A DNA stretch of 64,000 nucleotides from Candidatus Micrarchaeota archaeon (GTDB taxonomy: Archaea > B1Sed10-29 > JAJRYS01). The notes under the pieces are model-generated. The model was not told the origin of the DNA, searched no databases, and saw nothing but the letters and a program-made list of their open reading frames with translations. Position 1 is the stretch's first letter, and each line of letters opens with the position of its first letter. Shown one piece after another: positions 6,038-54,882 of the stretch. The stretch spans positions 1-64,000 of the forward strand of contig CAZXTN010000003.1 in NCBI GenBank assembly GCA_964643685.1, written 5' to 3'. The position numbers and the translations under genes were made by a program.

Positions 6038-6676
6038 ATGAATGAAAAAGAAATTCTTAAAATTTTAATAAAAGAATACGGCAAGCCGACTACTCAGTTG
6101 ATTCATAGAAATCCTTTCCAGCTGATGATTGCCACGATTTTGTCAGCCCAATGCACTGATGAAAGAGTCAACAAAGTAGCTCCAATTCTATTTAAGAAAT
6201 ATAAGACGCCTAAGGATTTTGCAAAAGCTGATTTGAATGACTTGAAAAGAATAATTAAGTCAACTGGGTATTACAATCAAAAAGCAAAGCGTCTGAAAGA
6301 ATCATCCAAAATGTTAGTTGAAAAATACGGAGGCAAAGTGCCTGAGTCAGTAGACGAGCTTGTTAAGTTGCCTGGCGTTGGGAGAAAAACAGCTAATATT
6401 ATAATCACGTATGGCTTGAAAGGAAACCAGGGCATAGCAGTTGATACTCACGTGCGCAGGGTAAGTTACAGGTTGGGTTTGACTGAAAGCAAAAACCCTA
6501 AAATTATTGAGCAGGATTTGATGAAAAAGTTTAATAAAAAAGACTGGCCTTTAATCAATTCACTGTTGGTATGGCACGGTAGAAAATATTGTAATGCGCG
6601 CAAGCCAAAATGCAAAGAGTGTCCATTAAACAAAATATGTCCAAAAAGAGGGCTGAGCGAAGCGAATGCCGTCTAG
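6038..6676 (+). CDS. nth: Endonuclease III
   Basis: LSAQCTDERVN, LPGVGRKTAN, AVDTHV, CxxxxxxCxxCxxxxxC FeS motif. Confidence 0.96.
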   Translation: MNEKEILKILIKEYGKPTTQLIHRNPFQLMIATILSAQCTDERVNKVAPILFKKYKTPKDFAKADLNDLKRIIKSTGYYNQKAKRLKESSKMLVEKYGGKVPESVDELVKLPGVGRKTANIIITYGLKGNQGIAVDTHVRRVSYRLGLTESKNPKIIEQDLMKKFNKKDWPLINSLLVWHGRKYCNARKPKCKECPLNKICPKRGLSEANAV

Positions 6677-6754
6677 CGATCCAACGGCTGGCCGTTGGCG
6701 CGTAAGCCAAAATGCAAAGAGTGTCCATTGAATAAGATATGTCCAAAAAAAGGA
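6596..6754 (+). repeat. 57-bp direct duplication of the nth 3' end flanking a hairpin cassette
   Basis: 6596-6652 vs 6698-6754, 6 mismatches; intervening CTGAGCGAAGCGAATGCCGTCTAGCGATCCAACGGCTGGCCGTTG. Confidence 0.9.
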
Positions 6755-6765
6755 GTTGAAAAAAA

Positions 6766-8142
6766 GTGAGTGAAGAAAAGTTGAATAGGGTAATTAATTT
6801 TAATCAATTAGTGATTTATGGTGTAGGGGTTATTCTCGGTGCTGGTATTTACGCCTTGATTGGAGAAGCTGCTGGAACAACTGGCCCTAGTTTGTGGATG
6901 AGTTTTTTGTTTGCTGCAATAGTTGCTTCTTTCACTGGATTAAGTTACGCTGAACTTAGTTCAATAAAACAGACAACTGCATCTGAATACATGTACGTCA
7001 AGCAAGGTTTTAAGAACAAAAGAACTGCTTTTATTGTCAGCTGGTTGATTAACATAGTTGACATTACTGCAATTACCACTGTATCTCTTGGTTTTGCTAA
7101 TTACTTTGTTGCTTTATTTTTTCCAAAATTAATTGACAAGGTTATCCTCAGCTTGTTTGAAATAACCTTAACCCCTGTCGTACTTGTTGCTTCTTTGCTC
7201 ATCCTTGCCTTGACTTTAATTAATTACATTGGAATAAAACAATCCGTAAACTTGAACATAATATTCACTTTAATTGAGTCAATTGGTTTATTAGTTATCA
7301 TCCTGCTTGGAGGCATTCACTTGGCTCAAGGAGGGCACGTGCCTAACTTGCTTGAAATGCCTTTTGGTTTTACAGGATTGTTCGGAGCAGTGGCTTTGAT
7401 TTTCTTCGCTTACCTTGGTTTTGAAGACCTGGCTAACTTAGGAGAAGAAGTAAAGGAAGCTAAGAAAAACATTCCAAAAGCAATCTTATTATCAATAGTA
7501 ATAACAACAATCATCTACGTTCTTGTTTCAATTTCAGCTGTAAGCATAATTCCATGGCAACAATTAGGCAATTCTCCTCAGCCACTTGCTGATGTTGCCA
7601 ATGCAAAACTCGGAGCAAAAGGAAGTTTTATGCTTTCTTTCATTGCCTTATTTTCAACTTTCAACACAGTGCTTATAATGATTACAGCTGTTTCAAGAGT
7701 CATTTATGGAATGGCAAAAGATAATTCCTTGCCTAAATTTTTAGCAAAAGTAAGCAGAAAAAGAAAAACACCTGTAAATGCCTTAATTGCAGTTGCTTTA
7801 ATAGCAATTGCAGCTTCTTTCATGAAGGACATTGGAGAAGTAGCTGAGCTTACAACACTTGGAGTGTTTATTGTTTTTGGAATGATAAACGCTTCCTTAA
7901 TTAAAATAAGGTTAAGTAATGAAAAATTACCTGAAGACAGGTTCAAAACTCCTTTCAACATAGGCAGATTTCCTTTAATTCCTTTTTTTGGGTTGCTTTC
8001 AAGCATTTGGATGATTGGAACCTACCTCGTGAAAAACACTGCAAGTGGACTGCAGGTTAATTTATTAAATCCCTCAGTAATAATAGTAATCATTGAGATA
8101 ACACTGGGAATAATTGCTTTTGAACTGCTTAAAAGGAGATGA
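6766..8142 (+). CDS. APC-family amino acid permease
   Basis: GVGVILGAGIY, SYAELSS, FFAYLGFE..EEVK, SRVIYGMA; about 12 TM. Confidence 0.92.
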   Translation: MSEEKLNRVINFNQLVIYGVGVILGAGIYALIGEAAGTTGPSLWMSFLFAAIVASFTGLSYAELSSIKQTTASEYMYVKQGFKNKRTAFIVSWLINIVDITAITTVSLGFANYFVALFFPKLIDKVILSLFEITLTPVVLVASLLILALTLINYIGIKQSVNLNIIFTLIESIGLLVIILLGGIHLAQGGHVPNLLEMPFGFTGLFGAVALIFFAYLGFEDLANLGEEVKEAKKNIPKAILLSIVITTIIYVLVSISAVSIIPWQQLGNSPQPLADVANAKLGAKGSFMLSFIALFSTFNTVLIMITAVSRVIYGMAKDNSLPKFLAKVSRKRKTPVNALIAVALIAIAASFMKDIGEVAELTTLGVFIVFGMINASLIKIRLSNEKLPEDRFKTPFNIGRFPLIPFFGLLSSIWMIGTYLVKNTASGLQVNLLNPSVIIVIIEITLGIIAFELLKRR

Positions 8143-8149
8143 AGAAAAA

Positions 8150-8371
8150 ATGAATACAAGAAGACAAGTAAACGCGCCGGCAATCGGCTTGATAACTTCA
8201 ATTCTTTATTTGCTCGTATTTAGTTTTTCAAGGTTTATTTTGACAAAAGAACCATTCAACTGGAATGAAGCTTTGCTAGGAGCAGTTATCTTCGGATTAA
8301 TTTTTTTCACAATACAACACACAATAAACTTAAAAATAGGCGAAAAACCAGTGTTCTTAAGCAGAATATGA
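8150..8371 (+). CDS. Small two-TM membrane protein
   Basis: Two hydrophobic segments; follows the permease; SD-like AGGAGA. Confidence 0.55.
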   Translation: MNTRRQVNAPAIGLITSILYLLVFSFSRFILTKEPFNWNEALLGAVIFGLIFFTIQHTINLKIGEKPVFLSRI

Positions 8372-8414
8372 AACACCATAAGGTTTATAAACGTCAATAA
8401 TTAGTAAAATAAGC

Positions 8415-8532
8415 GCTGGCGACCACAGCGGAAGGGAAACACCTGGTAACATTCCGAACCCAGAAGTTAAGCCTTCCAGCGATTCGGCGTGTACTGAATT
8501 TATATTCGGGAAAACCGAGACGTTGCCTAGCA
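8415..8532 (+). rRNA. rrf: 5S rRNA (unlinked)
   Basis: GGCGACCACAGCG..ACACCTGG..CATTCCGAACCCAGAAGTTAAGCC..GTACTG..GGGAA..GTTGCC; own TATA (GTTTATAAA ~8383). Confidence 0.93.
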
Positions 8533-8586
8533 TTCTCTACTATAACATAGTAGAGAAGAACTTTCTTTATTTCTTTCTAAAAAAAG

Positions 8587-8784
8587 TTATTTCACTAGCT
8601 CTATTAATTTTTTAGCTATTTCCATGTGTCCTTTTTCCTGGTCTCTTATTAAAGAAAACATTTCAATCAATTCTTTATCATTTAATCTTTCAATATAATT
8701 GGAATAGAGGTTGAATGCTTTTGTTTCCATTTCCAGCAAATGAACAAAAGGATCAATTGTAACTGCAGTGTGTTTAATACTCAT
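8587..8784 (-). CDS. Small two-helix ferritin-like/rubrerythrin half-domain protein
   Basis: LEMETKAFNLY..IRDQEKGH (E..ExxH). Confidence 0.65.
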   Translation of the reverse strand: MSIKHTAVTIDPFVHLLEMETKAFNLYSNYIERLNDKELIEMFSLIRDQEKGHMEIAKKLIELVK

Positions 8785-9013
8785 TTTTATCACTTTTTAA
8801 AATACTTTGCTTGGCTTCTGTTATCATCTTGTAGTGATTCAAGCTTTGTTCTTCAAGCAACTTAAGCAATTCTTCTGCTTGAAGCTGTTTTTCTTTTGGC
8901 AGCTTGTATTCAAGTATTTTTTGCCCTAAGAGGTAGCCTAGTTCAGGCAGGAAGCTTTCTTCTAATTCAATTGCTTCATCAAGCATTTTAATAACTTCTT
9001 GTTTTGAAACCAT
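8774..9013 (-). CDS. Small two-helix ferritin-like protein (degenerate)
   Basis: LDEAIELEE..LEEQSLNH; overlaps the downstream half-ferritin gene. Confidence 0.5.
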   Translation of the reverse strand: MVSKQEVIKMLDEAIELEESFLPELGYLLGQKILEYKLPKEKQLQAEELLKLLEEQSLNHYKMITEAKQSILKSDKNEY

Positions 9014-9113
9014 TGAAGTAAAAAAAAGAGGTTCTGGTTTTTAAAGAAAACGCTTAAATAAAAACAGTGCTTTTAGAAAATTAAAATACTTGAAAAAGAA
9101 GGTGGTTTTTGAA

Positions 9114-9620
9114 ATGAAGAACTTGTTGATTGTTTTAAGCTTGGTTGCAGTTGTTTTTTTAGCTGGTTGCATTCATAAAACAGCTCCTGAACATTCTTTT
9201 GAGGGAATTGATTGTGGCAGTGACACTGTGTGTTTTGCAAGTAATTTAGCTAAATGTAATCCAGCTAAGATTCAAGTAAGCCAAAATGTTAATGGAATGA
9301 ATGCTGTTTTTTACATGGATATTCAAGGAGGAACTGTGGATTCATGTGAAATTTATCAGCAGGTTAAGTCAATTGAGTTTCCTGAGAACATGAGTCCGGT
9401 TGAGAAAATGGCTGCGCAGTTAATGATTGGAGCTGATTCAACTTGCATTGGTCCTGTTGACAAGCTTAAAACAGGCAGTTTTGAGGAGTATGAAAAATAC
9501 TTTAATTGCAGTGGAACTTTGTATGAGTTAATGAAAGCAGGGAGTCAGCAGGTGGAGCAGGTAGTTGATAATACATCTGGGTATGAAGAAGAAGGGAGAA
9601 AAACATTAAACCCTAACTAA
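9114..9620 (+). CDS. Cys-rich predicted lipoprotein
   Basis: Signal ending FLAGC; DCGSD..CF....C pattern; SD GGTGG. Confidence 0.7.
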   Translation: MKNLLIVLSLVAVVFLAGCIHKTAPEHSFEGIDCGSDTVCFASNLAKCNPAKIQVSQNVNGMNAVFYMDIQGGTVDSCEIYQQVKSIEFPENMSPVEKMAAQLMIGADSTCIGPVDKLKTGSFEEYEKYFNCSGTLYELMKAGSQQVEQVVDNTSGYEEEGRKTLNPN

Positions 9621-9884
9621 AAACAATTCAACTTCTTTAAAAAAAGAGGACTTTATGTCCTCTGCCAATCCAATCAGTTTACAAGAGCCTTTACTCGCGT
9701 AAACTTCAGACGACCGTTGGGTAGGAAAATATTAAATTGCAAGAATAAATGGCATCGAGCTTAAGCGAAGATGGCATAGCGATCCAACGGCTGGCCGTTG
9801 GGGAGAAAAACATTAAACCCAACACTAAATTAAGGTAAAACAAGAGTTTTTAGAGGTCATCAAAGGCGAAGCTGAAGATGGCCT
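9594..9884 (+). repeat. Hairpin cassette cluster with 20-bp gene-end duplication
   Basis: GGGAGAAAAACATTAAACCC at 9594-9613 and 9801-9820; 25 bp (9777-9801) identical to 6674-6698; 9847-9884 homologous to the reverse complement of 23127-23165. Confidence 0.85.
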
Positions 9885-9897
9885 AATTATATTTCTT

Positions 9898-11451
9898 TCA
9901 TTTTCCAAATTCGTATACTATTGGCTTGGTTTCTGTTGAGAAGTTTTCAAGTATTACTTTGTCCATTTCAATAGCTGTTCTTTTGTCAAAAACTTCTTTA
10001 GCTGCTTGCAGTTTTCTTTTGCTTTCAGCGTATATTGTCATTAGCTTGTCTCCTTTTTTTACCTTGTCCCCTTTTTCAAAATACATGTAAACTCCAGCTC
10101 CCTTGTCTTTAGGAGCGCCTGCAACTCTTGCAATTTCACTAATGACTTTGTTATGAATCAAATGAATCCTTCCATTCTCCTTAATGTAAATATCAAGCTT
10201 ATGCTGTCCTATTTTCACATCCTCTGGCTTAATGTCAGGGTTTCCTCCTTGCGCTTTAATTATTTCTTTCATTTTTTCCAAAGCCCTTCCATCTTCAAGG
10301 ATTTCCTGAGCCATTTTCTTGCCTTCTCCTTCTTTAGCAACGCCAGCCATTTCCAGCATCAACCCAGCCATTACAAGAGACTTGTCAATTAAGTCAAGGC
10401 TTACTTTTTCACCATAGAGAATTCTTAAAATTTCCCTTGCTTCTAAAGCAGGTCCAATTGCAAACCCTATAGGGTCATACCCTGGTGTGATGATGCAATG
10501 AACTTCCATGCCAAGCTTGGAACCTAAATCCATGAAATCTTTGGCAAGTGACTCAGCTTCTGAATGCGAAGCCATTTTAGAACCAACTCCAACTGGAATG
10601 TCAATTAGAACATGAGTAGCTCCAACAGCCTTCTTTTTTGCAAGGATTGATGCTAAAAGAACTCCACGGGGATCCATTTTTAAAGGGTGTCTTATTTTAA
10701 TCAGCTTGTCATCAGCAGCAGCGAGGTTAACTCCCCCTCCCCAAACCATGCATGCATTTGTTTTTTTAACTACTTTTTCAATTTTATGAGCAGGCAAGCT
10801 TACAGGAGCTAGCACTTCCATTGTATCAGCTGTTCCAGCAGGTGAAGTGATTGCTCTTGAACTTGTTTTAGGAACAGTTATTCCAGCAGCTGCTAAGATA
10901 GGCACAATAAGCATTGTTGTCCTGTTTCCAGGCACCCCTCCAATGCAATGCTTGTCTAAAATAGGCTTTTTTTTAAAATTCAAAGTTCTTCCTGAATCAA
11001 CAATTGCTCTTGTTAAAAACAAAGTTTCTTTGTTACTCAATCCTCTTATGTACATTGCTGTGATAAAAGCAGCGAGTTCAGCGTCACTTAATTCTTCATC
11101 CATCACGCCTTTAATAATTTCCCTTATCTCACTTTCAGTTAATTCAAAGCCATCCATTTTCTTTTTAATGAATTCAATGGAAGCTGGTTTAGGCACTGGC
11201 TCAATGCTTATCTTTTGCCTTGGTTTAAGTTTAAGCTTCTTGCTGATTCCTCTGAATAACCCAATTTCTCCTCTTTTAATTGAAGAATCGCTTAATTCAA
11301 CAAGAGCAATTTGTGATTTTGAATGGTCTCTGACTTCAACCCTGTCCATTACACTTAAGTTCAAGTCAATTGCATCTTCTTTATTCATTACAATGATGCT
11401 TTTTCCACCTGAATCCATGTCCAAATTCTTGTATTTGAATTCATACTTCAC
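9898..11451 (-). CDS. AMP phosphorylase
   Basis: N-terminal double-psi-like domain, DKHCIGGVPGNRTT, KTSSRAITSPAGTAD, GAPKDKGAG. Confidence 0.95.
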   Translation of the reverse strand: MKYEFKYKNLDMDSGGKSIIVMNKEDAIDLNLSVMDRVEVRDHSKSQIALVELSDSSIKRGEIGLFRGISKKLKLKPRQKISIEPVPKPASIEFIKKKMDGFELTESEIREIIKGVMDEELSDAELAAFITAMYIRGLSNKETLFLTRAIVDSGRTLNFKKKPILDKHCIGGVPGNRTTMLIVPILAAAGITVPKTSSRAITSPAGTADTMEVLAPVSLPAHKIEKVVKKTNACMVWGGGVNLAAADDKLIKIRHPLKMDPRGVLLASILAKKKAVGATHVLIDIPVGVGSKMASHSEAESLAKDFMDLGSKLGMEVHCIITPGYDPIGFAIGPALEAREILRILYGEKVSLDLIDKSLVMAGLMLEMAGVAKEGEGKKMAQEILEDGRALEKMKEIIKAQGGNPDIKPEDVKIGQHKLDIYIKENGRIHLIHNKVISEIARVAGAPKDKGAGVYMYFEKGDKVKKGDKLMTIYAESKRKLQAAKEVFDKRTAIEMDKVILENFSTETKPIVYEFGK

Positions 11452-11514
11452 TTAACATCAAACTCCTATTTCACTTCTTTTTAAAAATAACATGCTTAAT
11501 CTTTAAAAAACATT

Positions 11515-11808
11515 TTAAACAAACTTCTCCAACGCTTGCTTCACAGTCATTTTGTCATTAACACCTAAACTCAAAGCTTTTTTACTGACAAAATCAACTT
11601 TTTTCAAAATCATTTCAGCAATTGACTTAACTCCCTTGACCTGAACACAAGCATCTCCAAGTTCATCTGCAACTTTTGAATTAAAATAACCGCATACTGC
11701 ATAGCCTTTATCTGCTTTTATCAGCAGGAAAGGCGCGTTGCCCAAGTCAATCTTTACCCCCACTGCAATGCCGTTGCTTAAATCAATTATTTCAGTTTCA
11801 GAAATCAT
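11515..11808 (-). CDS. YunC/DUF1805 family protein
   Basis: APFLLIKADKGYAVCGYFN..VKGVKS..VSKKALSLGV. Confidence 0.8.
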   Translation of the reverse strand: MISETEIIDLSNGIAVGVKIDLGNAPFLLIKADKGYAVCGYFNSKVADELGDACVQVKGVKSIAEMILKKVDFVSKKALSLGVNDKMTVKQALEKFV

Positions 11809-12658
11809 TGAACATCCACTTCTTTTTCCTTAAAATCAAGTCAGGAAAAGAGTCGATTGAAAACACCCCCAAATCACTTACAGTGAAATCAACATACTCC
11901 TTTGGAGTGAAGTCAAAAGCAGGATTCACCACCTTGATATTTTTTACTCTTGTCTTCCACACTTCGCTTGGCTTCCTCTGTTCAATTTCCTCATTATACC
12001 CATCAATTGTAAAAGGGTCAAATTTCAAGGATTCAAAAGCAGATGCGAAAGTCGTTCTTGCTTCGTCAGCTGCAAGGGCAAGCAAAGAAGTTCCAACTTT
12101 GTTAACCAAGTAACTGTCACTTGTAATGGCATCAGCTCCTACAAGAACCAAGTCAGCATCATTTACAAACAACCTCATTGCAGAGTCAACGTAACTGGTT
12201 ACAGGAATGCCATAAGACGCTAACTGCTTTGCTGTTATCCTGCCTTGAAAAAGAGGACGGGTTTCAGATGAAAAAACTTCCTCAATCTTACCTTTGTCAA
12301 ATGCTTTTTTAATTATCTCAGCTACAAGCGAAGAATGACAGTGCGTCATTACAATTGAATTTCTTTTTATTTTTCTTGCGCCGAATTCAACTGCTTTTTG
12401 AAAACTGTCTTCAATCATCTCTTCAAACTCGTCAACTGCTTCTTCAATTGAGTAACCATCATCAATTTTATAACTCACATACCTCAAGCCATTTCTAAGC
12501 ATGGGTTCAGTTGCTCTTATTTTAAAAAAAGCAGAAGAAGCTTTCTTGTAAGTCTTATAATCCAATCCTTTCAAGGACTTCAAAGCAGTTAAAGCAACAT
12601 TAGTCGCGCCTTGAATCTTAAGGCTTTTTATATCCTTCAAAGTTTTCAAGTAATTCAT
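11798..12658 (-). CDS. Ribose-1,5-bisphosphate isomerase (eIF2B-like)
   Basis: IQGATNVA, MTHCHSS (catalytic Cys), ETRPLFQG, VGADAI, NKVGT, NPAFDFTP; adjacent to AMP phosphorylase. Confidence 0.88.
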   Translation of the reverse strand: MNYLKTLKDIKSLKIQGATNVALTALKSLKGLDYKTYKKASSAFFKIRATEPMLRNGLRYVSYKIDDGYSIEEAVDEFEEMIEDSFQKAVEFGARKIKRNSIVMTHCHSSLVAEIIKKAFDKGKIEEVFSSETRPLFQGRITAKQLASYGIPVTSYVDSAMRLFVNDADLVLVGADAITSDSYLVNKVGTSLLALAADEARTTFASAFESLKFDPFTIDGYNEEIEQRKPSEVWKTRVKNIKVVNPAFDFTPKEYVDFTVSDLGVFSIDSFPDLILRKKKWMFNDF

Positions 12659-13719
12659 AATCTTAACACTCTTTTTACATATTTATTTTTAAGCAGTTCA
12701 GCCATTTGCTTAAAAGCAAGCACGTCCCTCATTTTAACAACTCCAACCAGCTCGCCTTTTTCAACAACAGGCAACATGGGAACACCTGCTTTTTCCATTT
12801 CATGCAATGCTTTTTCAGCTGAATCACTTGGCTTCAGCACAGGCACTTTAAAAGAATTCTCTGCAATTGTCTTGCTTGCATCAACTACTTTTGACAAGTC
12901 AAACAAGTTCAAAGAACCTTTTACAATTGCAAAACTCCTGCGGTAAAAAAACATTTTGTCAACAACATCCTTTACAACCTCTTCTCCGTCAGCAACTAAA
13001 AAATCAGTTGATAAAAGACGTGAAACTTTCACTTTCTTCAAGTAAATAGAATCCATCAAAGCCCTGTATTCTCCGCTTGCACCTATGAAAATAAACCCTG
13101 CTATTAAAAGAAGCCAGAAATCAAAAGCAAGTAAAGAATAGACAACCATAAGCCCTGCAATTGCAAAACTCACATTCCTGGCAATAAAAGTTGCTTTTTC
13201 TCTTGTTGTCTTAAGCGAAAGCACTGCCCTGAATATCCTGCCTCCATCAAGAGGAAAAGCAGGCAGGAACAAGTTGAAACTACCGAGCACGAGATTAGCG
13301 TAAAAAGAATAGTAAATTAAAAGAGGAAAAGAAAGGCTCATTTCATTAATCACTTTGAAAGCATTTTCAAAAGGAAGCTGAAGCAAGTGCATTGAAAAAA
13401 TAAGCAAGTAGCACATTAAGAAATTGAAAAGAGGACCTGCTACAGCCACCGCCACTTCCTTCACTGGCTTTATTTTTTTAATATCCATCAAAGCCATTCC
13501 TCCTATTGGAAGAAGAACAATTTTGTCTACTCTTATGCCAAGGTGTTTGGCTACAAGAGAATGTGAAAATTCATGGAGAGTGACAAAAACAAACACTGTT
13601 AACAGAAGCAATGCAAAAGTTGAGTCAAGAAGGAAAAGGATTAAAATGAAAAAAACAAAGCTTATGTGGGCTTCAACAGGTATCCCGAACAAAGAAAGTA
13701 ATTTATAAGAAGGCTTCAT
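12655..13719 (-). CDS. Site-2 protease (M50) with CBS domains
   Basis: LHEFSHS, LLPIGG, AGPLFN, FNLFLPAFPLDGGR; C-terminal CBS pair. Confidence 0.92.
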   Translation of the reverse strand: MKPSYKLLSLFGIPVEAHISFVFFILILFLLDSTFALLLLTVFVFVTLHEFSHSLVAKHLGIRVDKIVLLPIGGMALMDIKKIKPVKEVAVAVAGPLFNFLMCYLLIFSMHLLQLPFENAFKVINEMSLSFPLLIYYSFYANLVLGSFNLFLPAFPLDGGRIFRAVLSLKTTREKATFIARNVSFAIAGLMVVYSLLAFDFWLLLIAGFIFIGASGEYRALMDSIYLKKVKVSRLLSTDFLVADGEEVVKDVVDKMFFYRRSFAIVKGSLNLFDLSKVVDASKTIAENSFKVPVLKPSDSAEKALHEMEKAGVPMLPVVEKGELVGVVKMRDVLAFKQMAELLKNKYVKRVLRL

Positions 13720-13776
13720 ACAGAATAAAACAAAAGAAACAGGACTATAAATAACTAATTGAAAGAAGGTAAACAA

Positions 13777-14709
13777 ATGGACTCTTTTGAAAAATCAGCA
13801 GAAGTTGTCATAAGCAAGTGCGTGAATCTCAAGCAAGGGGAAAAAGCGCTTATTCTCTGCGATTACTCAACTGAAAAAATTGCACAGAAGCTGTTTGAAA
13901 AAGCAAGTGAAAAAACAGAAGCTGTTCTTGTTAAAACAAAGCCGACTGAAAGGCACGGTGTAGAACCATTAAAAGAAGTTGCTTACTTAATGAGCAAATT
14001 CGACGTAGTTCTTGCTCCGACAAAACACTCCTTGACTCACACCAAGGCAAGGCAAAACGCTACGAAGAAAGGAGCAAGAGTTGTTACAATGCCTGGAATA
14101 ACAAATAAGATTTTTGAAAAAACAATTGACATTGACTACAAGCAATTGAAAAAAGAAGTTGACGAGCTTGCAAAGGAAATGAGGAAAGCAAAAAAGATAA
14201 GAGTGCAGTCAATTAACGGCACTGACTTTGTTTTTGAAAACGATGCAAGCAGAGTAATGGACGATGACAACGGCTTGTTCTTGAAAAAAGGAGATTACGG
14301 CAACTTGCCTGCTGGAGAAGTTTACGTTGCTCCAATTGAAAAAACAGGAAAAGGAGTAATAGTTATTGATTCAATGGAAGATATTTGCAAGCCGAGAACA
14401 AAGCTTCTTGTAAAAAAAGGAAAGGTAATGGAAGTTGAAGGAGATGACAAGTTCAGGGAAAAATTATGGAAGTTGAAGAACGCGCGTAACATAGCTGAGT
14501 TTGGAATTGGCTTGAACCCGAAAGCCACTGTTGTAGGCAACACTCTTGAAGATGAAAAAGTAAAAGGCACGTGTCATTTTGCACTTGGCTCTAATTTTGA
14601 CTTTGGAGGAAAAGTAAAAGCTGAAGTGCATTGGGACGGCATTATAATGGCCCCTTCAATTTGGTTTGATGAGGAAAAAATAATGGACAAAGGAGAACTG
14701 CTTTTATGA
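13777..14709 (+). CDS. Aminopeptidase (M29/AmpS-like)
   Basis: GNLPAGEVYVAP, IAEFGIGLN, EDEKVKGTCHFALG, HWDG. Confidence 0.88.
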   Translation: MDSFEKSAEVVISKCVNLKQGEKALILCDYSTEKIAQKLFEKASEKTEAVLVKTKPTERHGVEPLKEVAYLMSKFDVVLAPTKHSLTHTKARQNATKKGARVVTMPGITNKIFEKTIDIDYKQLKKEVDELAKEMRKAKKIRVQSINGTDFVFENDASRVMDDDNGLFLKKGDYGNLPAGEVYVAPIEKTGKGVIVIDSMEDICKPRTKLLVKKGKVMEVEGDDKFREKLWKLKNARNIAEFGIGLNPKATVVGNTLEDEKVKGTCHFALGSNFDFGGKVKAEVHWDGIIMAPSIWFDEEKIMDKGELLL

Positions 14710-15362
14710 AAGAAAAAAAAGATCTTGAAAAAATAGGCTTGATTGAAGAGAAGAAATTCTGGGCAGTAATGCTTTTGCTTGGCTTGGCAGCTGTTGTTTC
14801 TTATTTTTATGACATGCAAATAAGCTTGGCTTTGCAGTCTATAAGAAATCCTCTGCTGGATAAAGTGATGATAATTGCAACTGATTTAATGGGGCTTTAT
14901 TTAGGCATGCCTCTGCTTGTGATTATTGTTTATTTAAAGGAAAGGAAAAGAGATAAGAGGATATACAGGAAAGTGATAATTTCAATGATTCTGAATATTG
15001 GCTTGAGTTTTATAATCAAGCTAGCAGTGCATCGTCCACGCCCTTATGCAAATGGAATCAAAAGCGCTATAGGAGAAGAGTTTCTTTACTCCTTCCCTTC
15101 AGATCATTCTGCAAGAGCCTTCAATTACTTCTCAATACTCGCTCATTATTACAGGCACAAGCTGTTTTATTACTCATTAGCTACATTCATTGCTTTTTCA
15201 AGAGTTTATCTAGGAGTGCATTATGCTTCTGATGTTATTGCAGGGGCAATGTTTGGCTTAATCATTTCGCATTACACTGTAAAGTACAAGTGGGGAACAA
15301 GAAGCTTTGAGTACTATGAAAAAAAGCTGCTTGAAATGAAAACAAAGTTTAAAAACAAGTAA
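14706..15362 (+). CDS. PAP2-family membrane phosphatase
   Basis: K....RPRP, SFPSDH, SRVYLGVHYASDV. Confidence 0.92.
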   Translation: MKEKKDLEKIGLIEEKKFWAVMLLLGLAAVVSYFYDMQISLALQSIRNPLLDKVMIIATDLMGLYLGMPLLVIIVYLKERKRDKRIYRKVIISMILNIGLSFIIKLAVHRPRPYANGIKSAIGEEFLYSFPSDHSARAFNYFSILAHYYRHKLFYYSLATFIAFSRVYLGVHYASDVIAGAMFGLIISHYTVKYKWGTRSFEYYEKKLLEMKTKFKNK

Positions 15363-15378
15363 AGCTTAATTGGTTAAC

Positions 15379-17091
15379 ATGCTTGAATTGACTTTGATTT
15401 TTCACATTGCTTTAATGGTTCTTGCAGCGACTTTTTTTGCATTCATCTCTCACCTCCTTAAGCAACCTAATTTACTTGGTTACATACTTGCAGGCATAAT
15501 TTTAGGCCCAATTGGATTAAATTTAATTTCAAACACAAGTGAAATACTCACTTTATCTGAACTTGGAATAGCTTTCTTATTATTCAGCGCAGGAATTGAA
15601 ATCAGCTTCAGCAAACTAAAAGGAGTTGGAAAAATAGCTTTCGTAAACGGGTTTCTGCAAGTTGTTCTTACAGCTGGAATCAGCTTCTTAATACTGCAAA
15701 AACTGAACGTGGACTTCTACTCTTCACTTTACATTTCCGCTGCTATTGCTTTCAGCAGCACCACAATTGTATTGAAAATAATGTCTGACAATTTCGAACT
15801 TAACACATTACACGGCAGAATAATGCTAGGAATACTCATAATACAAGACTTGATGGCTATCCTTTTCCTTTCTTTTCTTGAAAACATGCAAAGCATTACA
15901 GCAGCATCAGTAGCTGTTCTTATTGTCAAAGCAGGCGCGCTGTTCCTAATAGGATACTTCCTGAACAAATTCATCTTCCCTAACTTGCTTAAAGCAGCTG
16001 AAAAATCCCAAGAACTCCTATTCCTCACAGCAATTTCAACACTATTCTTCTTCATGGGCCTCGCTTACGACTTAGGCTTCTCAATAGCAATAGGAGCACT
16101 TGTCGGAGGAATCTCACTTTCATTAATTCAATTTGAAACAGAAATAAACGGAAAAATAAAAACGCTTAGGGATTTCTTTGCAATAATCTTCTTCGTCTCC
16201 CTTGGCATGCAAATAACATTGAATTTAAGCCCATGGGCTATTGAACTAATCCTTGCAATCATCCTGCTTACTGTCCTGCTCAAGCCTCTGATACTATTCC
16301 TCCTTCACTTGATATCAGGTTACGGAGGAAGAACTTCTTTAATCACAGGAATAGGGCTTGGTCAAATGAGCGAATTTTCATTCATAATAGCTGTGCAAGG
16401 CGTTGCTCTTGGATACTTGACTCAAGAACAATTCACTGCAATGACAATCCCAATAATACTGACAATAGCTGTCTCTCCTTATTTTTTCAAATACGACAAC
16501 AGCATATTCAACGCATTGTTGAAAATAAAAAATAAATTAAAATTACCTGACTTGAAGTTCATTAGAAGAAGAGTGCCGAAAACGAGAAAAATCAACACAA
16601 AAGAACTTAAAAACCACACCCTGCTAATAGGAGCTCATAGAATGGGAAGAGAGATAATAAACGAGCTTCATAAAAAACACAAGCTAATTATAATTGACTA
16701 CGACCCTGAAGTGATAAAAGAACTTGACTCAAAAGGATACAATTGCATTTACGGAGACGCTTACAACGACTACATCCTTGAAAAAGCAAAAGCAGGTAAA
16801 GCAAAACTAGCAGTCATTACAATTCCAGATGATTCAATAATACTTGCAGTGATTTCAAAACTTAGAAAAATGAACCCAAAAATCAAGATATTCACAAGAG
16901 CAAACTTTGTTGAAGATGCAATTAAATTCTACGAAGCAGGAGCAAATGCAGTGATACTCCCAGAAGTAATAGCTGGACAGAAAATGATTAAAAGAATAAA
17001 CTCCCTAGTAAAAGACGAAGTTAAAATAAAAAAAATGAAAGAAAAGCATTTGAAAGAACTTAGAAAAAACTGCAAAAAAAACAAGACTTGA
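15379..17091 (+). CDS. CPA2 cation:proton antiporter with TrkA-N (KefB-like)
   Basis: GYILAGIILGP, SSTTIVLK, IQDL, FFVSLG, QMSEFSF; C-terminal IGAHRMG..DYDP..YGDA. Confidence 0.92.
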   Translation: MLELTLIFHIALMVLAATFFAFISHLLKQPNLLGYILAGIILGPIGLNLISNTSEILTLSELGIAFLLFSAGIEISFSKLKGVGKIAFVNGFLQVVLTAGISFLILQKLNVDFYSSLYISAAIAFSSTTIVLKIMSDNFELNTLHGRIMLGILIIQDLMAILFLSFLENMQSITAASVAVLIVKAGALFLIGYFLNKFIFPNLLKAAEKSQELLFLTAISTLFFFMGLAYDLGFSIAIGALVGGISLSLIQFETEINGKIKTLRDFFAIIFFVSLGMQITLNLSPWAIELILAIILLTVLLKPLILFLLHLISGYGGRTSLITGIGLGQMSEFSFIIAVQGVALGYLTQEQFTAMTIPIILTIAVSPYFFKYDNSIFNALLKIKNKLKLPDLKFIRRRVPKTRKINTKELKNHTLLIGAHRMGREIINELHKKHKLIIIDYDPEVIKELDSKGYNCIYGDAYNDYILEKAKAGKAKLAVITIPDDSIILAVISKLRKMNPKIKIFTRANFVEDAIKFYEAGANAVILPEVIAGQKMIKRINSLVKDEVKIKKMKEKHLKELRKNCKKNKT

Positions 17092-17121
17092 AAAACAAAT
17101 AAAACAAAGAGGATATGAAAA

Positions 17122-17550
17122 ATGAACTCGAAAATAAAAGCACTTGCAATACTCATAATAAGCATCATTACCTTCAGCTTAGGCTTTTTATCAGAAAACC
17201 TTGGAATAAAAACACTTCAAATAATACCCCCTGCAACAACAAACATCACATTAGTAGTAATCACCTTCGGATTTGGAATGCTCTTCTTCGGATACTTCCC
17301 ATGGATACTAACTTACTTCATAGGGGAATACCTCGGCTTAATTTTCAAACTTCATCAGCAATCCACAACCCAAATATTACTCCTTACCCTTGCAATAATG
17401 CTAATTGCCTTCTCAAGCTCATGGCTTGGAATAAGCTTATACAATGACTTAGCTGGAAAACAAAGCGCTTTCTCAAAAGAATTGAAAAAAAACACGATAA
17501 TCATAATAATCTCACTTATTCTAGCAATAGCAAGCCAAGTTATTGCATAA
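17122..17550 (+). CDS. Hypothetical membrane protein
   Basis: Several hydrophobic segments; correct frame by composition. Confidence 0.65.
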   Translation: MNSKIKALAILIISIITFSLGFLSENLGIKTLQIIPPATTNITLVVITFGFGMLFFGYFPWILTYFIGEYLGLIFKLHQQSTTQILLLTLAIMLIAFSSSWLGISLYNDLAGKQSAFSKELKKNTIIIIISLILAIASQVIA

Positions 17551-17814
17551 AAGTAGTTACAACAATATTTTTAAATAGAAGTTAAGAGCTTAACTATAAC
17601 TGAACAGACCTTTTTTCCAGAATGCGTCACCGTTGTTTTGGGAGAGTTTTCCGTTCAAAAAACTCTCCTATCTATTTTTACCTGAATCAAAAAGCAGAAT
17701 TAGAAGATAATAGAAACAGGAGTTTACAAAACATTTATAAACATGACACGATTACATTCTAACCTGCACACAAGAACTTGGACGAAAAAACGAAATTAAA
17801 GGAGGGACGAGAAA

Positions 17815-17937
17815 ATGAGCATGGCTAAATTTGCTAAATACAAGCAGCTTGAACAATTAAAAACTTTTTCTGAAAACAACAAAAGATACTTAAACATAAG
17901 CATAGGCACTGTAATAACAACCCAAATGCCAAACTAA
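17815..17937 (+). CDS. 40-aa small ORF
   Basis: MSMAKFAKYKQLEQLKTFSENNKRYLNISIGTVITTQMPN; TTTATAAA ~17734 and SD AAGGAGG ~17799. Confidence 0.45.
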   Translation: MSMAKFAKYKQLEQLKTFSENNKRYLNISIGTVITTQMPN

Positions 17938-17950
17938 AAAAAAAATCTCT

Positions 17951-18358
17951 TTAAATCCAAAAAGCAGCTGTCTTCTCCATAGCTGCTTTCAACTCTTTTT
18001 CTTTAACCCTCGGAAACTTCAAAACTTTGAATTCAAACTCTTCTTCAAAATCCCTGTAATTCCTAACCCCCTTCCATGAAACAAACAAGCTCCTTACACC
18101 CGGCTTAGCTTTCTCAACAGCCCTCTTAATCTGCCTCTCACCTAAAAACCGCACAAGAAACTCAAGCTCTTCACTTGAAGCAAAATTACAGCCATTCTCA
18201 AACGCTTTTTTCATTTCATTAACAGCATGCAAAACCTGCTTTTCACCTACAAAAAAAGAAGCATTCAAAACCTGACAACCTTCATGACTATTAAGAAAAT
18301 CCACTACTTTCTGAAAATCAAAGTCCTTAAACTGAACCAATTTAACAACAACCTTCAT
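17951..18358 (-). CDS. cgi121: KEOPS subunit Cgi121
   Basis: QVLNA..GEKQVLHA..ELEFLVRFLGERQIKRA..AMEKTA. Confidence 0.75.
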   Translation of the reverse strand: MKVVVKLVQFKDFDFQKVVDFLNSHEGCQVLNASFFVGEKQVLHAVNEMKKAFENGCNFASSEELEFLVRFLGERQIKRAVEKAKPGVRSLFVSWKGVRNYRDFEEEFEFKVLKFPRVKEKELKAAMEKTAAFWI

Positions 18359-18459
18359 ATAATAAAGTTTAAAAAACAATAAGAATATAAAACAATACAC
18401 TTAAAAATTAAAACAAGCTAATCAAAAAAATGCTTATTTTCAACGGAGGATAGGAAAAC

Positions 18460-18855
18460 ATGGCAAAAACACAATCAAATGAAAACAAGAAAAAACCAAC
18501 AGGTGGAAAAAGAATAAACTACAAGAAAAAGAAGAAGTATGAATTAAGCGGAGTGCAAGCCCTGCCAACTATTTCAAAAAAAGACGAAAGAAAAAAAGTA
18601 AGGGCAATGGGAAACAAGAAAAAAATCAAACTAAAACACGCTTTAAAAGTCAACGTGCTTGACAAAAAAACAGGAAAATACACTGTAACTGAACTGCAGA
18701 CAGCAAGAGAAAACCCTGCAAACAGAAACTTCGCCAGAAGAAACATAATAACAAAAGGAGCAATAATAACAACAAAAATCGGAGACGTGAGAATCACAAG
18801 CAGGCCAGGACAAGACGGATGCGTAAACGCAGTTCTAATAGAAAAAAAGCAGTAA
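18460..18855 (+). CDS. rps8e: 30S ribosomal protein S8e
   Basis: KPTGG, ENPANRNFARRNIITKGAII, TSRPGQDGCVNAVL. Confidence 0.97.
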   Translation: MAKTQSNENKKKPTGGKRINYKKKKKYELSGVQALPTISKKDERKKVRAMGNKKKIKLKHALKVNVLDKKTGKYTVTELQTARENPANRNFARRNIITKGAIITTKIGDVRITSRPGQDGCVNAVLIEKKQ

Positions 18856-18948
18856 ACTGCTTTTTTTAAACCAATTCTTCCTTTTTCTTGGATTCACTTT
18901 TTTAATCAAACCAAACTTTTAAAAGCTAAAAAGCTGTTAAAAAAAACT

Positions 18949-44223: not shown

Positions 44224-44471
44224 AAAAATTAGATTATATATTCTTTCATTCTTCTTTTGATCACCGAGCCGCGGGGGACTCACCGCCCCCCTCAACTCTA
44301 GGTAACTCCTGCTCCCCCTGCTGACCACATGCGCTTCGCTTAGTGCTCATTTTTAGGGAATTCTTGAAAACTTTGAGTTTTCAAGTTTGCGAAGTTATAT
44401 TTCGCATAATCTGATCTCCCTCCTTAATAATAAAAAAATTAGATTATATATTCTTTCATTCTTCTTTTGAT
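44224..44471 (-). repeat. 38-bp perfect gene-end duplication flanking a 172-bp hairpin cassette
   Basis: AAAAATTAGATTATATATTCTTTCATTCTTCTTTTGAT at 44224-44261 and 44434-44471; insert has several hairpins including CTAAGCGAAGCGCATG (minus). Confidence 0.9.
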
Positions 44472-45122
44472 TTCGTCAAGAGGAAGAACAGTAGTTACTA
44501 ATGGAATTTTTTCAACCTCTGAAATCTTAAGAGCAACCTTGTCAACTTCAGAAATGTTATGAAGCACAACCATGGTAGGCTTCAATTTAGTTACACGGAT
44601 TGCAATCAAAGGGCTTCTTCCCATTGAAACATTAGTGAAAATCAAAGCCCTTTCAGTAGTGTTGCCGTAAATTTTAATAAATTCATCAGCAGGCAGTTCA
44701 AGAATAGCGCGGATAGAATCAACAATAGTAAAGCCGTAAATTTTGGTTTTTTTCAGAACTGCTTCGTTTGAAATTATTCTCCCTTCAATTGATTTTACAA
44801 AATCCTTTGACTTCATTGACTTGGAAAAATCCTCCACGTCAAAAACTTCACTTGGCTTCTGCAATTGAAGCTTTTTATAAACCCAGCCTCCTTTCTGCCT
44901 GTCAATTTCAATAATGGCATTCACAAACCTTTTAATAATGCTTGCTCCTGGACTCTTTCTCCTATTCCCTTCATAATCAGAGATAGTTGAAGGAGTTACA
45001 TTTAAAAAATCAGCTAATTCAGTTTGAGAAATTCCGAAAATTTCACGCCATTTTTTCAAAGAAGAGCCAGGGTTGTCACTTAAGGTAATTTCCCCTGCAA
45101 TGTCAAGCAAAATCTTGTCCAT
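44439..45122 (-). CDS. Conserved archaeal XRE-HTH transcriptional regulator (COG1709-like)
   Basis: IAGEITLSDNPG..KKWRE.F..SQ.ELA..ISDYE..RRKSPG; ERALIFT.VS.GRSP.IAIRV. Confidence 0.85.
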   Translation of the reverse strand: MDKILLDIAGEITLSDNPGSSLKKWREIFGISQTELADFLNVTPSTISDYEGNRRKSPGASIIKRFVNAIIEIDRQKGGWVYKKLQLQKPSEVFDVEDFSKSMKSKDFVKSIEGRIISNEAVLKKTKIYGFTIVDSIRAILELPADEFIKIYGNTTERALIFTNVSMGRSPLIAIRVTKLKPTMVVLHNISEVDKVALKISEVEKIPLVTTVLPLDEIKRRMKEYII

Positions 45123-53116: not shown

Positions 53117-53152
53117 TCATCGTTCTCCCTTTAAAGGGAACATTCGATACTG
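53117..53152 (-). promoter_or_regulatory. Putative eL15 ribosomal leader
   Basis: 5'UTR TCGAATGT-TCCC TTTAAA GGGA-GAACGA resembles the eL15-Euryarchaeota r-leader (recalled, not aligned). Confidence 0.5.
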
Positions 53153-53395
53153 CTTAAAAAAACAGTGAATTAATTATTGCATTAATTTATTTTTAAAGCT
53201 TTGGAACAACACAACTTTTTAAATGAAAAGGTTTAAAAACAAAACCATTAATAAATAATAAACACTCCTTCGACTACTTGCTTAACAAGACGTCCACAGG
53301 AGAAAAAAATAAAAAAAGATTCAATTAAAAAAAATGAATCTAATTTTAAAAAAAAAGAAATTTTAATTAAAACTTAAGGACAGGTGGAAAACAAA

Positions 53396-53986
53396 ATGGC
53401 TTCTTTGAAACCAGCAAAAACACAAAGAGAACCAAGAAGAGCTTGGACAAGAACAGCTAAAAGAAAAGTAAAAAAAGCATTCGTACGCGGAGTACCTGAC
53501 TCTCGTTTAAGAAGCTTTGACATGGGCTTTGCAAAACCAAAAGACTGCGAAATAGAACTAGACTTAGTGTCAAGCGAACATTTTCAAATGAGAGACAACT
53601 CACTTGAATCAGCAAGAGTCATGGCAAACAAAATATTTGAAAAAAAAATAGGAAGAGACTTCTACTACTTCAAAGTAAGAGTATTCCCACACCAATGCTT
53701 AAGAGAACATTCCATGCTAACAGGAGCAGGAGCAGACCGTTTATCATCTGGAATGAGAAAGCCATTCGGACGCCCAATAGGAAGAGCAGCTGTCGTGAAA
53801 AAAGGCCAGAAAATATTCACAGTATACACAATGAAACAATTTGAAAACCACGCAAAAGAAGGCTTGAAAAGAGCGGCAATGAAACTAAGCGGAAGCCCAA
53901 AAATCGTGATAAAAGACATTAGCAAAAACAAGCCTGAAAAACTAATGCCAGGAAAAAAGAAGAAAAAAAGAGACTTCAAAAAATAA
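53396..53986 (+). CDS. rpl10e: 50S ribosomal protein uL16 (L10e)
   Basis: LESARV, RVFPHQ.LREH..GAGADRLSSGMRKPFGRP.G. Confidence 0.96.
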   Translation: MASLKPAKTQREPRRAWTRTAKRKVKKAFVRGVPDSRLRSFDMGFAKPKDCEIELDLVSSEHFQMRDNSLESARVMANKIFEKKIGRDFYYFKVRVFPHQCLREHSMLTGAGADRLSSGMRKPFGRPIGRAAVVKKGQKIFTVYTMKQFENHAKEGLKRAAMKLSGSPKIVIKDISKNKPEKLMPGKKKKKRDFKK

Positions 53987-54145
53987 AACAACAAAGCAAC
54001 TTTTCTCATTTTTTTACTTTTTCTTATTTTATTCAATTAACAATTAGACTTAACTCTAAAAAAAGCTTTATTAATTCAAAAAAAGACAACTTAAAGTAAT
54101 AGGTAAAACAAATTCTTAAAAAAAAGGCAATTGAGGTTAATTAAA

Positions 54146-54718
54146 ATGAACAGTAGGCAAATACAAGAGATGGTAAAAAGAGAACTTGAAAAAAGAAAAG
54201 GTAACATGACAAGCGCAGCAAGCAATGCAGAAAAATCAAAGAAATCAGAACTGCTTCGTAGGAGAGCAGAATTAAAAGCATCATTGCTTAGAACAAACGC
54301 TGTTTCTGATAAAATAAATAAGAAATTAGTGGAAGGATTGATTAAAAAAAGCTTAAAAGAGCAGATAAAATACAACAGGGAAAGAGGATTGCCTACTGAA
54401 CAACTGGAATGGGATTTAAGGAGAACAAAGGAGATTGCTAATGAAATTTATGACAACCCTGAAGTGCAGAGGGCTTTGAATGAACAGAGGAGAGCAATAA
54501 GAACAAGCAGCAAAAAACAGCAGAGCAACACAATCATAGACAGTTTGCTTGGAGCAGGAGCTTTAGTAGTGGGATCCCCTGTAAATTTTTTACTTGCAAT
54601 GGGTTTAATAGGTAAAAAAACAGGCGAGCATGCCATAAAAAGAAAAAAACTAAAACCACTCCAAGAAGATATAAGAAAAAGGTTAAAAGAAAACAAAGAA
54701 AAATTGAAAGAAAGTTAA
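54146..54718 (+). CDS. Orphan basic coiled-coil protein with Gly-rich hydrophobic hairpin
   Basis: ORF with SD GAGGT; IIDSLLGAGALVVGSPVNFLLAMGLIG segment. Confidence 0.65.
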   Translation: MNSRQIQEMVKRELEKRKGNMTSAASNAEKSKKSELLRRRAELKASLLRTNAVSDKINKKLVEGLIKKSLKEQIKYNRERGLPTEQLEWDLRRTKEIANEIYDNPEVQRALNEQRRAIRTSSKKQQSNTIIDSLLGAGALVVGSPVNFLLAMGLIGKKTGEHAIKRKKLKPLQEDIRKRLKENKEKLKES

Positions 54719-54772
54719 ATAATCCTTTTTTTACTTACTTATTTTTTTAAAAGCAAACGTTTTAATGACTTG

Positions 54773-54882
54773 TTTTTTTGCCGTTAGGCAAAAAACCTTT
54801 TCAAACTTCAAAGAAGTTTGAACTTGGCTATTGAGGCGTAAGCCGAAAATAGCCTTATTGATGCAAACTTTTAAAGTTTGCT
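54773..54882. repeat. Four-hairpin cluster at tRNA-Ala 3' end
   Basis: TTTTTTGCC/GGCAAAAAA, TTCAAACTTC/GAAGTTTGAA, GGCTATT-GAGGCGTAAGCCGAA-AATAGCC, GCAAACTT/AAGTTTGC. Confidence 0.75.

Follow-up and report, generated by a model that had tools for sequence, protein, structure and literature searches.

Hairpin elements at duplicated gene ends of a Candidatus Micrarchaeota genome contain a tRNA-intron domain and are candidate mobile introns

Why do short, hairpin-rich cassettes recur at the 3′ ends of genes in a small archaeal genome, and why do some of them lie between two copies of the end of the gene that they adjoin? The question is raised by a stretch of 64,000 nucleotides (nt) from a Candidatus Micrarchaeota archaeon (GenBank assembly GCA_964643685.1, contig CAZXTN010000003.1, positions 1 to 64,000), hereafter called the window. 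An initial annotation, made from the letters alone, had listed in it a dispersed family of GC-GAA-GC hairpins at gene and tRNA ends and had proposed a non-autonomous element whose enzyme is encoded elsewhere. The window is the start of contig C3 of a genome of 695 kb (G000; 12 contigs; 36% G+C; 92% complete), and the runs holding its sequence are labelled as hydrothermal vent metagenomes. The genome encodes two archaeal markers, TFIIB and the tRNA-splicing endonuclease EndA (the only PF01974 match in the genome, at C1:21078-21338, E = 4.8e-34, in a 170–amino acid open frame), and introns are present in 12 of the 21 tRNAs that ARAGORN lists for it. The reading we favor, with a probability of roughly 55%, is that the cassettes are copies of modular, non-coding, GC-rich hairpin elements of intron type that are mobile and insert with a long target duplication.

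The cassettes do not form the single family first supposed. They comprise family A (three copies), family B (two copies in the window and about 15, at least 14, in the genome, as found with nhmmer and covariance models), solo hairpins, and a composite; no related motif is present at positions 1-60, which had been listed as a probable member. In family B, an A-rich leader precedes three hairpins: H1, which is variable and lies on the 5′ side, H2, with the conserved loop AUCAGGA, and the long H3, in whose base RAACUG pairs with CGGUUY, followed by GG; H3 ends in GCGGUUCGG. In this genome, H1 reads GACCAC-TAAGCGAAGCGCATG-GTGGTC with a GC-GAA-GC cap. The aligned copy ends (AAGACCAC at the start and GCGGTTCGG at the finish) are not inverted repeats, and the associated duplications vary from 15 to 126 bp, unlike the terminal inverted repeats and short duplications of constant length that define the miniature inverted-repeat elements of DDE transposons. 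Against Rfam, the window matched only 5S ribosomal RNA (rRNA) and tRNA models, and the element had no match at E values up to 10 or 1. The RAACUG/CGGUUY base of H3 resembles the base of group II intron domain V, without the AGC triad and without the other intron domains; readings as hammerhead, HDV-like, or group I structures were considered too and not adopted. In this genome, the family B tail often precedes GGTGA or GGTGAGGAT, similar to a Shine-Dalgarno sequence.

The 3′ module formed by H2 and H3, about 60 nt long, is the conserved part. The alignment to its covariance model comprises 69 matches, of which 63 are distinct. For H3, 96.2% of cells were paired and both sides had changed in 11 of the 13 pairs. 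None of 500 shuffles attained the covariation score of the real alignment, and all slid controls fell far below it. One U·G pair is preserved in 62 of the 63 distinct copies; taken together with several G·U pairs in H1, this argues for an RNA of this strand rather than a DNA hairpin. The outer stem of H1 varies with compensation, as had been claimed from the window: among 10 copies, three of the seven outer pairs have double changes.

Copies elsewhere identify the module. ARAGORN predicts tRNAs that span it in several loci of metagenome-assembled genomes (MAGs), and at four individual element loci (L105, L113, L152, and L112) the cloverleaf is restored once the module-ending intron is removed. 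The tRNAs are tRNA-Thr(UGU), tRNA-Thr(CGU), tRNA-Ser(GGA), and tRNA-Arg(CCU). In these anticodon-loop introns, the 3′ intron end lies at, or at most 4 bases from, the last base of the module; the Rfam tRNA model independently spans L105 and L113. In the genome of the window, tRNA-Gln(UUG) at C1:166397-166657 contains both an anticodon-loop intron and a T-loop intron, and the latter ends in the module; the 76-nt tRNA-Gln is recognized only after in silico removal of both. Since intron removal restores tRNAs at the four loci and in tRNA-Gln, the module is the 3′ domain of an archaeal tRNA intron family, and the 3′ splice junction coincides with its end or lies next to it. None of the copies in the window is located in a tRNA. 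This intron connection, in an archaeal genome, is the key context that the initial annotation had missed.

At some tRNAs, the tail is followed by a UGAG/UGAA adaptor and then by the last bases of the T-loop. In the upstream, intact tRNA, T-loop positions 54-57 are the pairing partner of this adaptor, and the T-stem is the outer helix. A strict 3-4-3 bulge-helix-bulge (BHB, of the hBHBh′ form) at 59/60 is present at tRNA-Ile (C3:79637), at the tRNA at C4:33984, and at L066 in a second archaeal phylum. A strict BHB that uses the tail is also found at the intron loci L152 and L112. With a BHB at the T-loop, the second 3′ exon could be ligated to the tRNA body after cleavage by the splicing endonuclease.

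That second exon is part of a wider pattern: outside introns, a direct duplication of the adjoining gene end typically flanks the module. A second copy of the upstream sequence starts at the tail, or a few bases from it, in the genome of the window (family B, 9 of 15 copies; family A, 2 of 3), at 13 of 28 loci of the second phylum (a count made by eye), and at 22 of 65 MAG loci (with about 280 nt of flank). The repeats are 15 to 126 bp long, many of them below 30 bp. Some cover the 3′ part of a tRNA, beginning at the T-arm and extending as far as ~100 nt past the 3′ end. Others cover protein C-termini, and a few loci have repeats that include the start codon and ribosome-binding site of the gene that follows. 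The inserts contain no open reading frame (ORF). Further inserts in the genome follow the same logic with other hairpin modules, and tRNA 5′ ends are duplicated too. Since the second gene-end copy starts at the last base of the module, the host gene stays intact.

All three gene-end duplications reported for the window are real. The last codons of the endonuclease III gene (nth, HhH-GPD family) at 6596-6647 (+) recur at 6698-6749 (+), where copy 2, whose first base is the final base of the cassette, has a full, native-looking C-terminus and stop; the repeat is 52 nt with five differences (57 had been claimed, edges included). The end of a helix-turn-helix (HTH) gene, 44439-45122 (−), is found at 44434-44471 (−), its proximal copy and true end, and again at 44224-44261 (−), the distal copy (copy 2 in gene direction), which holds the last 32 nt plus 6 nt; all 38 positions are identical. 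The third, a 20-bp end of ORF 9090-9620, lies at 9594-9613 (+) and 9801-9820 (+), with 20 of 20 positions identical and the second copy again beginning at the last base of a cassette. The nth and ORF 9090-9620 duplications are not artefacts of one assembly, because contigs of run X3 span 6397-6829 and 9653-10068 with no differences; the artefact explanation, raised earlier, is thus excluded for the two of the three that lie in the stretch compared (6001-26000).

The copies at coding ends have diverged in a particular way. At 12 ORF-end loci (at least 60 upstream codons), they differ synonymously at 35 codons and non-synonymously at 3; when loci of uncertain frame are included, the numbers are 39 versus 13. 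In a ppsA-like gene, 14 of 31 codons differ, among them two serine codon-family switches, without an amino acid change. Differences are likewise all synonymous at L121 (6 of 8 codons) and in nth of the window (4 of 13 compared codons); L072, with 4 of 6 codons, is a further example of divergence. The 35-to-3 bias rules out neutral decay of an unused copy. Either both coding copies are used, or one of them derives from a diverged functional allele; in the latter case, the element would have been imported together with its gene end, or a functional copy would have been recombined in later. Such near-exclusive synonymous divergence of coding ends is a signal of selection or horizontal exchange.

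The module is widespread and patchy. It is present in 4 of 31 genomes of the organism's own phylum and in 24 of 61 genomes of the second phylum, at 1 to 12 copies each. A degenerate pattern scan of named genome records yielded at least 121 stretches, and 80 loci were scored with the model. Among the matches listed, 69 of these 80 public loci were matched over the full model, in records titled as Micrarchaeota, Aenigmatarchaeota, Iainarchaeota, Nanoarchaeia, Altiarchaeales, or simply an archaeon, all archaeal, and all 11 loci without a match come from records titled as bacteria. The module also occurs upstream of start codons, with the tail 3 to 25 nt before the start in L062 and L084 (genome G066) and in L059 (genome G079). 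An informal comparison by eye around the 28 second-phylum loci, among the matches listed, found no shared neighboring gene. In that phylum, for example at L022, L017, L032, and L086, pyrimidine-rich hairpins of the type CCTTTTCTTTC..GAAAGAAAAGG stand between the tRNA gene and the element and may be the tRNA terminators of that lineage.

The GC-GAA-GC architecture, given before as the common trait of the cassettes, stood in part. It is enriched over chance in the genome: GCGAAGC occurs at 33 + 30 sites, against ~13 per strand expected from base composition, and the purine-loop architecture occurs 12 times, against none in each of 10 first-order Markov simulations, with a pattern that was composed after the examples had been seen and with about 8 of the 12 occurrences belonging to one sequence family. 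A looser scan of the genome for the architecture gave 79 matches, mostly chance-looking. What did not hold is its generality: outside this genome, the place of H1 is mostly taken by an unrelated hairpin, so the GC-GAA-GC cap is largely local. The distant genome G072 has CTATC-GA-GC-GAAA-GC-GAA-GATAG at the H1 place.

The elements look mobile because near-identical cores of 87 nt (family B) occur at unrelated loci, the taxonomy is patchy, and target duplications flank the copies. We also count as indirect evidence of movement, like these features, a 90-nt piece of the insert 9621-9800 that is present in a contig of another organism from the same sample. This piece, 9639-9729, recurs with six differences in a 17,951-nt contig (run X1, record 1) whose source organism is far more abundant. 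We infer movement at the DNA level, as insertion with long target duplication. The earlier view of a dispersed, non-coding family that is conserved in structure and appears to move is supported, and no enzyme is encoded in or beside the copies.

Candidate enzymes were sought in the whole 92%-complete genome. There was no match to Y1_Tnp (PF01797), to the reverse transcriptase family RVT_1, to Cas1 (PF01867), or to the tyrosine integrase family PF00589, whose model a divergent SSV-type integrase may escape. Casposons make target duplications of 14-15 bp, and the repeat lengths here are also unlike these. The search for a co-occurring HUH transposase, a transposase of the kind associated with repetitive extragenic palindromes (REP; RAYT), or a reverse transcriptase therefore found none in the genome. 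In the second phylum, RVT_1 is present in 7 of 61 genomes and in only 2 of the 24 that bear the element. A reading of the elements as TnpB guide RNAs, with a scaffold and a flanking guide, was rejected, there being no TnpB and only a 23.6-bit zinc-ribbon match below the cutoff.

Several results weigh against the reading of mobile introns. The comparison of empty with filled sites that had been proposed gave no empty allele of any site: no listed joint of the contigs of four runs, compared over 6001-26000 with low and piecemeal coverage by other runs, skips an insert. A metagenome search with the nth protein found its closest locus at no more than 59% identity and no near relatives; a second iron-sulfur motif was absent from all 80 metagenome nth loci, a weak test, since this motif also misses the window's own partial second copy. 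As the genome is 92% complete, a dedicated enzyme could be absent from the assembly. The H2-H3 module model misses both family A and the solo hairpins, whose putative link to family B is the shared H1-type hairpin only. Some copies abut tRNAs in antisense, namely, 23103-23165 in the window and 4 of the 28 second-phylum loci (by eye).

The splicing evidence is uneven as well. At L105 and L113, there is no strict BHB at the ARAGORN junction. A strict BHB at the exact repeat period was found at 3 of 48 duplication loci versus 28 of 1152 control offsets, in a test that misses tRNAs already carrying a T-loop intron. Of the four protein-gene loci of the genome, none formed a strict BHB and, with relaxed motifs tested loosely, none exceeded controls, which implies that at such loci the upstream copy is the one that is read, and the nth ORF does end inside its cassette. 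A decayed remnant of the 3′ exon was not detected in the heads of introns, where all four alignments were no better than shuffles. Last, the route proposed next for the origin of the copies predicts repeats that are identical at birth and alone leaves a synonymous divergence of up to 14 of 31 codons unexplained.

How might such copies arise? Their 3′ end is precise while their 5′ end varies, and the repeats, whatever their length, have one edge inside the gene. Their 5′ junctions lie at A-runs, and the tail GCGGTTCGG resembles the 5′ half of a T-arm. Given these junctions, the likeness of tail and T-arm, and the absence of enzymes, our preferred route is template switching (copy-choice) during replication or break repair, a proposal that we hold at clearly less than even confidence. 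A strand would leave its template at A-tracts and re-enter at a microhomology such as GGTTCG, common to the tail and tRNA T-arms. Once in place, insertions would pass from lineage to lineage by ordinary homologous recombination, with the flanking repeats as the sites of exchange, which would explain why the coding copies differ like diverged functional alleles. At protein-gene ends, the upstream copy would be read and translation would stop inside the element.

A more tentative extension, which we think has a limited chance of being right, is that archaea gain introns by means of the module, which would be a mobile intron domain without a dedicated enzyme. On insertion, the module would bring a second copy of the downstream exon or gene end, and the host gene would work whether spliced or not. 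Decay of the first exon copy would then turn the insertion into an obligatory BHB intron. The module would also colonize protein genes, where both C-terminus copies would be under purifying selection.

Other explanations must be weighed against the reading of mobile introns. The elements could instead be mini integrative cassettes: a small circle, or its linear form, made of the element and one copy of the target gene end would integrate by single crossover at the corresponding gene end in a different cell or lineage. This we regard as unlikely, and integration by host RadA or by a recombinase acting in trans, like that of a phage whose attP carries a tRNA 3′ end, shares that grade. Crossover accounts for repeats that start at the tail and have any length, for their identity in recent copies, and for the allele-like state of older coding repeats (35 versus 3, with the serine codon-family switches of the ppsA-like gene); it also fits the tRNA repeats, which run from the T-loop to the 3′ end as classical att sites do in the account given in PMC2853133. 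However, circles of 100-250 bp would be very small for DNA, no tyrosine integrase was matched in the genome, and neither the new target segments of near-identical cores (C1:166698 versus C9:5823) nor the coincidence of the module end with tRNA splice junctions is explained. The precise 3′ end, the variable or truncated 5′ part, and the variable repeat length could be expected of a retroelement similar to short interspersed nuclear elements, whose structured 3′ module is recognized and whose RNA is reverse-transcribed into nicked DNA by target priming. Conservation at the RNA level, with its U·G pair, and several insertion points at terminator-like T/A runs agree with this. Yet some insertion points are inside ORFs rather than at transcript ends, and the target-primed alternative offered before finds no reverse transcriptase in this genome and one in only 2 of the 24 element-bearing genomes of the second phylum (7 of all 61). 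We consider it decidedly improbable.

The two remaining explanations have still less in their favor. The sequences could be lineage-specific 3′-untranslated or trailer structures (terminators, stabilizers, or processing signals) that do not move and that originated where they now stand, the repeats being local tandem duplications. That all copies of the window lie at gene or tRNA ends, as had been noted from the outset, that one of them exactly fills a convergent spacer, and that no empty site is seen among the contig joints listed would suit such structures. It is nevertheless very unlikely that they produced near-identical 87-nt cores at unrelated loci, one module with a patchy distribution in two phyla, copies before start codons as well as within the introns of several tRNAs, and an insert of which part is common to another organism in the sample. 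Slimmest of all is the chance that these are single-stranded DNA hairpins of the REP/REPIN or IS200/605 kind moved by an HUH (Y1) enzyme encoded elsewhere, the type of element (REP-RAYT, IS200/605, or IS91) to which the cassettes had been compared initially. The copies are indeed hairpin-rich, non-coding, and dispersed, and GCGAAGC is enriched; against this, the genome has no Y1_Tnp match, the flanking repeats measure 15-126 bp, the conserved wobble pair points to RNA and not to single-stranded DNA, and the module ends at or beside tRNA splice junctions. To our knowledge, long target duplications are not produced by the IS200/IS605-REP-RAYT family, which inserts without target duplication.

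We now describe the individual copies of the window. The hairpins reported initially are all present, and most fold better than 200 dinucleotide shuffles of their sequence. None of the shuffles was as good for 23205-23236 (z = -4.8) or 54820-54860 (z = -4.6), and scores of -3.1, -2.8, and -2.6 were obtained for 9840-9890, 23100-23170 (−), and 9745-9805; the fold of 6640-6705 is weak (z = -1.6, with 17 of 200 shuffles equally good). A K-turn reading of the GA/GAA hairpin was rejected by inspection, since the register that gives tandem G·A pairs breaks the outer stem.

The family A cassette at 6650-6698 (+), between the two nth ends, consists of a purine-loop hairpin (GCGAAGC) and a hairpin CCAACGG-CTGG-CCGTTGG; ORF 6038-6676 reads through the first nth copy and stops inside this insert. 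The cassette at 9750-9801 (+) is the 3′ end of the 180-nt insert 9621-9800, and the third, at 23103-23165 (−), has no duplication and abuts with its 3′ end the 3′ end of tRNA-Leu(GAG) (23016-23100, +) in antisense. The CCAACGG..CCGTTGG hairpin is confined to these three sites in the genome. Two solo purine-loop hairpins, both without flanking duplication, were found at 9847-9884 (+; GGTCATC-AAA-GGC-GAA-GCT-GAA-GATGGCC), which resembles the first half of the cassette at 23127-23158 (−), and at 23206-23235 (+; GAAGTTATC-GA-GC-AAA-GC-GAA-GATAACTTT).

Of family B, the core at 44264-44350 (−) comprises H1, H2, H3, and the tail GCGGCTCGG (95.5 bits; 69 bits and E = 4e-16 with the module model), the whole insert between the HTH gene ends being 44262-44433. 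The other copy, at 26783-26913 (+), is a long variant (87.5 bits) in which 44 additional nt separate H2 from H3; it lacks a duplication and exactly fills the spacer of the convergent ORFs 26309-26782 and 26914-27300. The composite at 54773-54882 (+) contains four hairpins, including GGCTATT-GA-GGC-GTAA-GCC-GAA-AATAGCC at 54826-54854, and abuts the 3′ end of the intron-bearing tRNA-Gly(CCC) (54884-54995, −) in antisense. Its homologues at C2:39900-40060, C6:17425-17570, and C4:1-185 have different hairpin sequences, the same architecture, and the same position.

Related arrangements were noted near these subjects. Behind an H1-type hairpin, an alternative 3′ module, the hairpin AAATGCAATTTTTGTTAAAAATTGC, can replace H2-H3; it is found at C1:110290-110620 (L014), C1:220447-220670, and C4:700-960 and is followed by a second tRNA 3′ end. 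At sites of this module, a tRNA-Leu 3′ end occurs in three copies. The same logic is seen at a 5′ end: a 34-bp duplication of a protein-gene start, ATG included, at 63939-63972 of the window and at C3:64066-64099, just past the window end, flanks a hairpin-rich insert of 93 nt without an H2-H3 module. The tRNA-Gly(CCC) gene beside the composite, missed by ARAGORN at default settings and found by Rfam and by ARAGORN -i, has an anticodon-loop intron of 35 nt (ARAGORN) or 40 nt (BHB scan) with a strict BHB. At C6:36066-36640 (L005), a tRNA-His-like gene (GUG, with G-1 encoded) has anticodon-loop and T-loop introns, a duplicated 5′ end with promoter region, and a tandem array of three 3′-exon copies separated by two elements; the ARAGORN list of the genome contains no other tRNA-His.

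Other features of the DNA are apart from the elements. Contigs C8 and C1 have identical contexts (C1:83241 and C8:7452; C1:84400 and C8:8611), and C8 seems to repeat part of C1, either through assembly redundancy or as a real large duplication. The 5S rRNA gene of the window, 8415-8531 (+), stands alone between an amino acid permease gene and ORF 9090-9620. In the region 18949-20196, one ORF holds an exact direct repeat of 90 nt at 378-nt spacing (19180-19269 and 19558-19647) with further repeats nearby, and it probably encodes a repeat-domain protein.

For the gain and movement of archaeal tRNA introns, the module offers a definable, searchable handle with strong covariation. It is seen in three states: in anticodon-loop introns, in a T-loop intron, and in fresh-looking insertions beside intact genes with duplicated ends. 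Elements standing beside a second gene-end copy may be how archaeal introns spread, and if the module were indeed a vehicle of intron gain, the arrival of endonuclease-spliced introns would for the first time be open to mechanistic study. On a practical level, the elements account for the low number of tRNAs, only 21, that standard tools recover from the genome, and they flag spurious gene-end extensions in annotation. A literature search, with subscription papers and supplements outside its scope, returned no description of the module or of introns that duplicate gene ends.

Several known systems share some of these features. REP/REPIN-RAYT and IS200/IS605 elements are dispersed short, hairpin-forming, non-coding repeats at gene ends; the elements described here differ from them in the lack of a Y1 match, the long duplications, the RNA-type conservation, and the location in introns. 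Mobile ORFs of fungal mitochondria, such as that at atp6 of Allomyces, encode an endonuclease and bring a replacement gene end, leaving two readable C-terminal copies. Here, too, the insert lies at a gene 3′ end between two readable C-terminal copies, but it is non-coding. In Caldiarchaeum, a tRNA-Thr gene is disrupted by a 1.8-kb element bearing a recombinase, a proposed route of intron gain as presented in PMC3293823; a tRNA fragment copy beside the insert is common to both cases, while our elements have no ORF and no recombinase match. Insertion with long target duplication has been described by Furuta et al. 2010 (PMC2853133, where Nobusato 2000 is cited) for kilobase restriction-modification units of bacteria, on the basis of empty-site comparison and with the mechanism unexplained. 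The likeness to the inserts treated there lies in direct repeats of tens to hundreds of base pairs, often over a gene 3′ end, without a mobility gene. In our data, target repeats above 30 bp (52 and 38 in the window, up to 126 elsewhere) likewise flank elements with no mobility gene in or beside them; unlike the units of that account, these are structured, non-coding archaeal elements of 50-180 nt, known from filled sites only.

Further parallels come from archaeal tRNA introns. A 2026 preprint still treats the arrival of Asgard tRNA introns as open (10.64898/2026.10.13.758758). ARMAN-2, as portrayed in PMC3239211, has T-loop introns of 13-25 nt with a BHB at 59/60 or 53/54 that are cut by a broad-specificity endonuclease. 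Like these, the elements studied here include T-loop introns in tRNAs of ultrasmall archaea with strict or relaxed BHB, three of the strict sites being at 59/60; the ARMAN-2 introns are far shorter and, in that portrayal, do not appear as a repeated family. Our loci also differ in the intact first 3′ exon upstream, which would make splicing dispensable. Nearest to our elements among known systems are the tRNA introns of Thermoproteales, which transpose according to Fujishima et al. 2010, as related in PMC4090602 and PMC3239211; in these descriptions, as here, movement at the DNA level is inferred, and its mechanism is unknown. Compared with the Thermoproteales introns as related there, what is shared among our copies is a defined structured module of ~60 nt with covariation, the module extends over several DPANN-type phyla and the second phylum, and it is found also at the ends and starts of protein genes, flanked by long target duplications.

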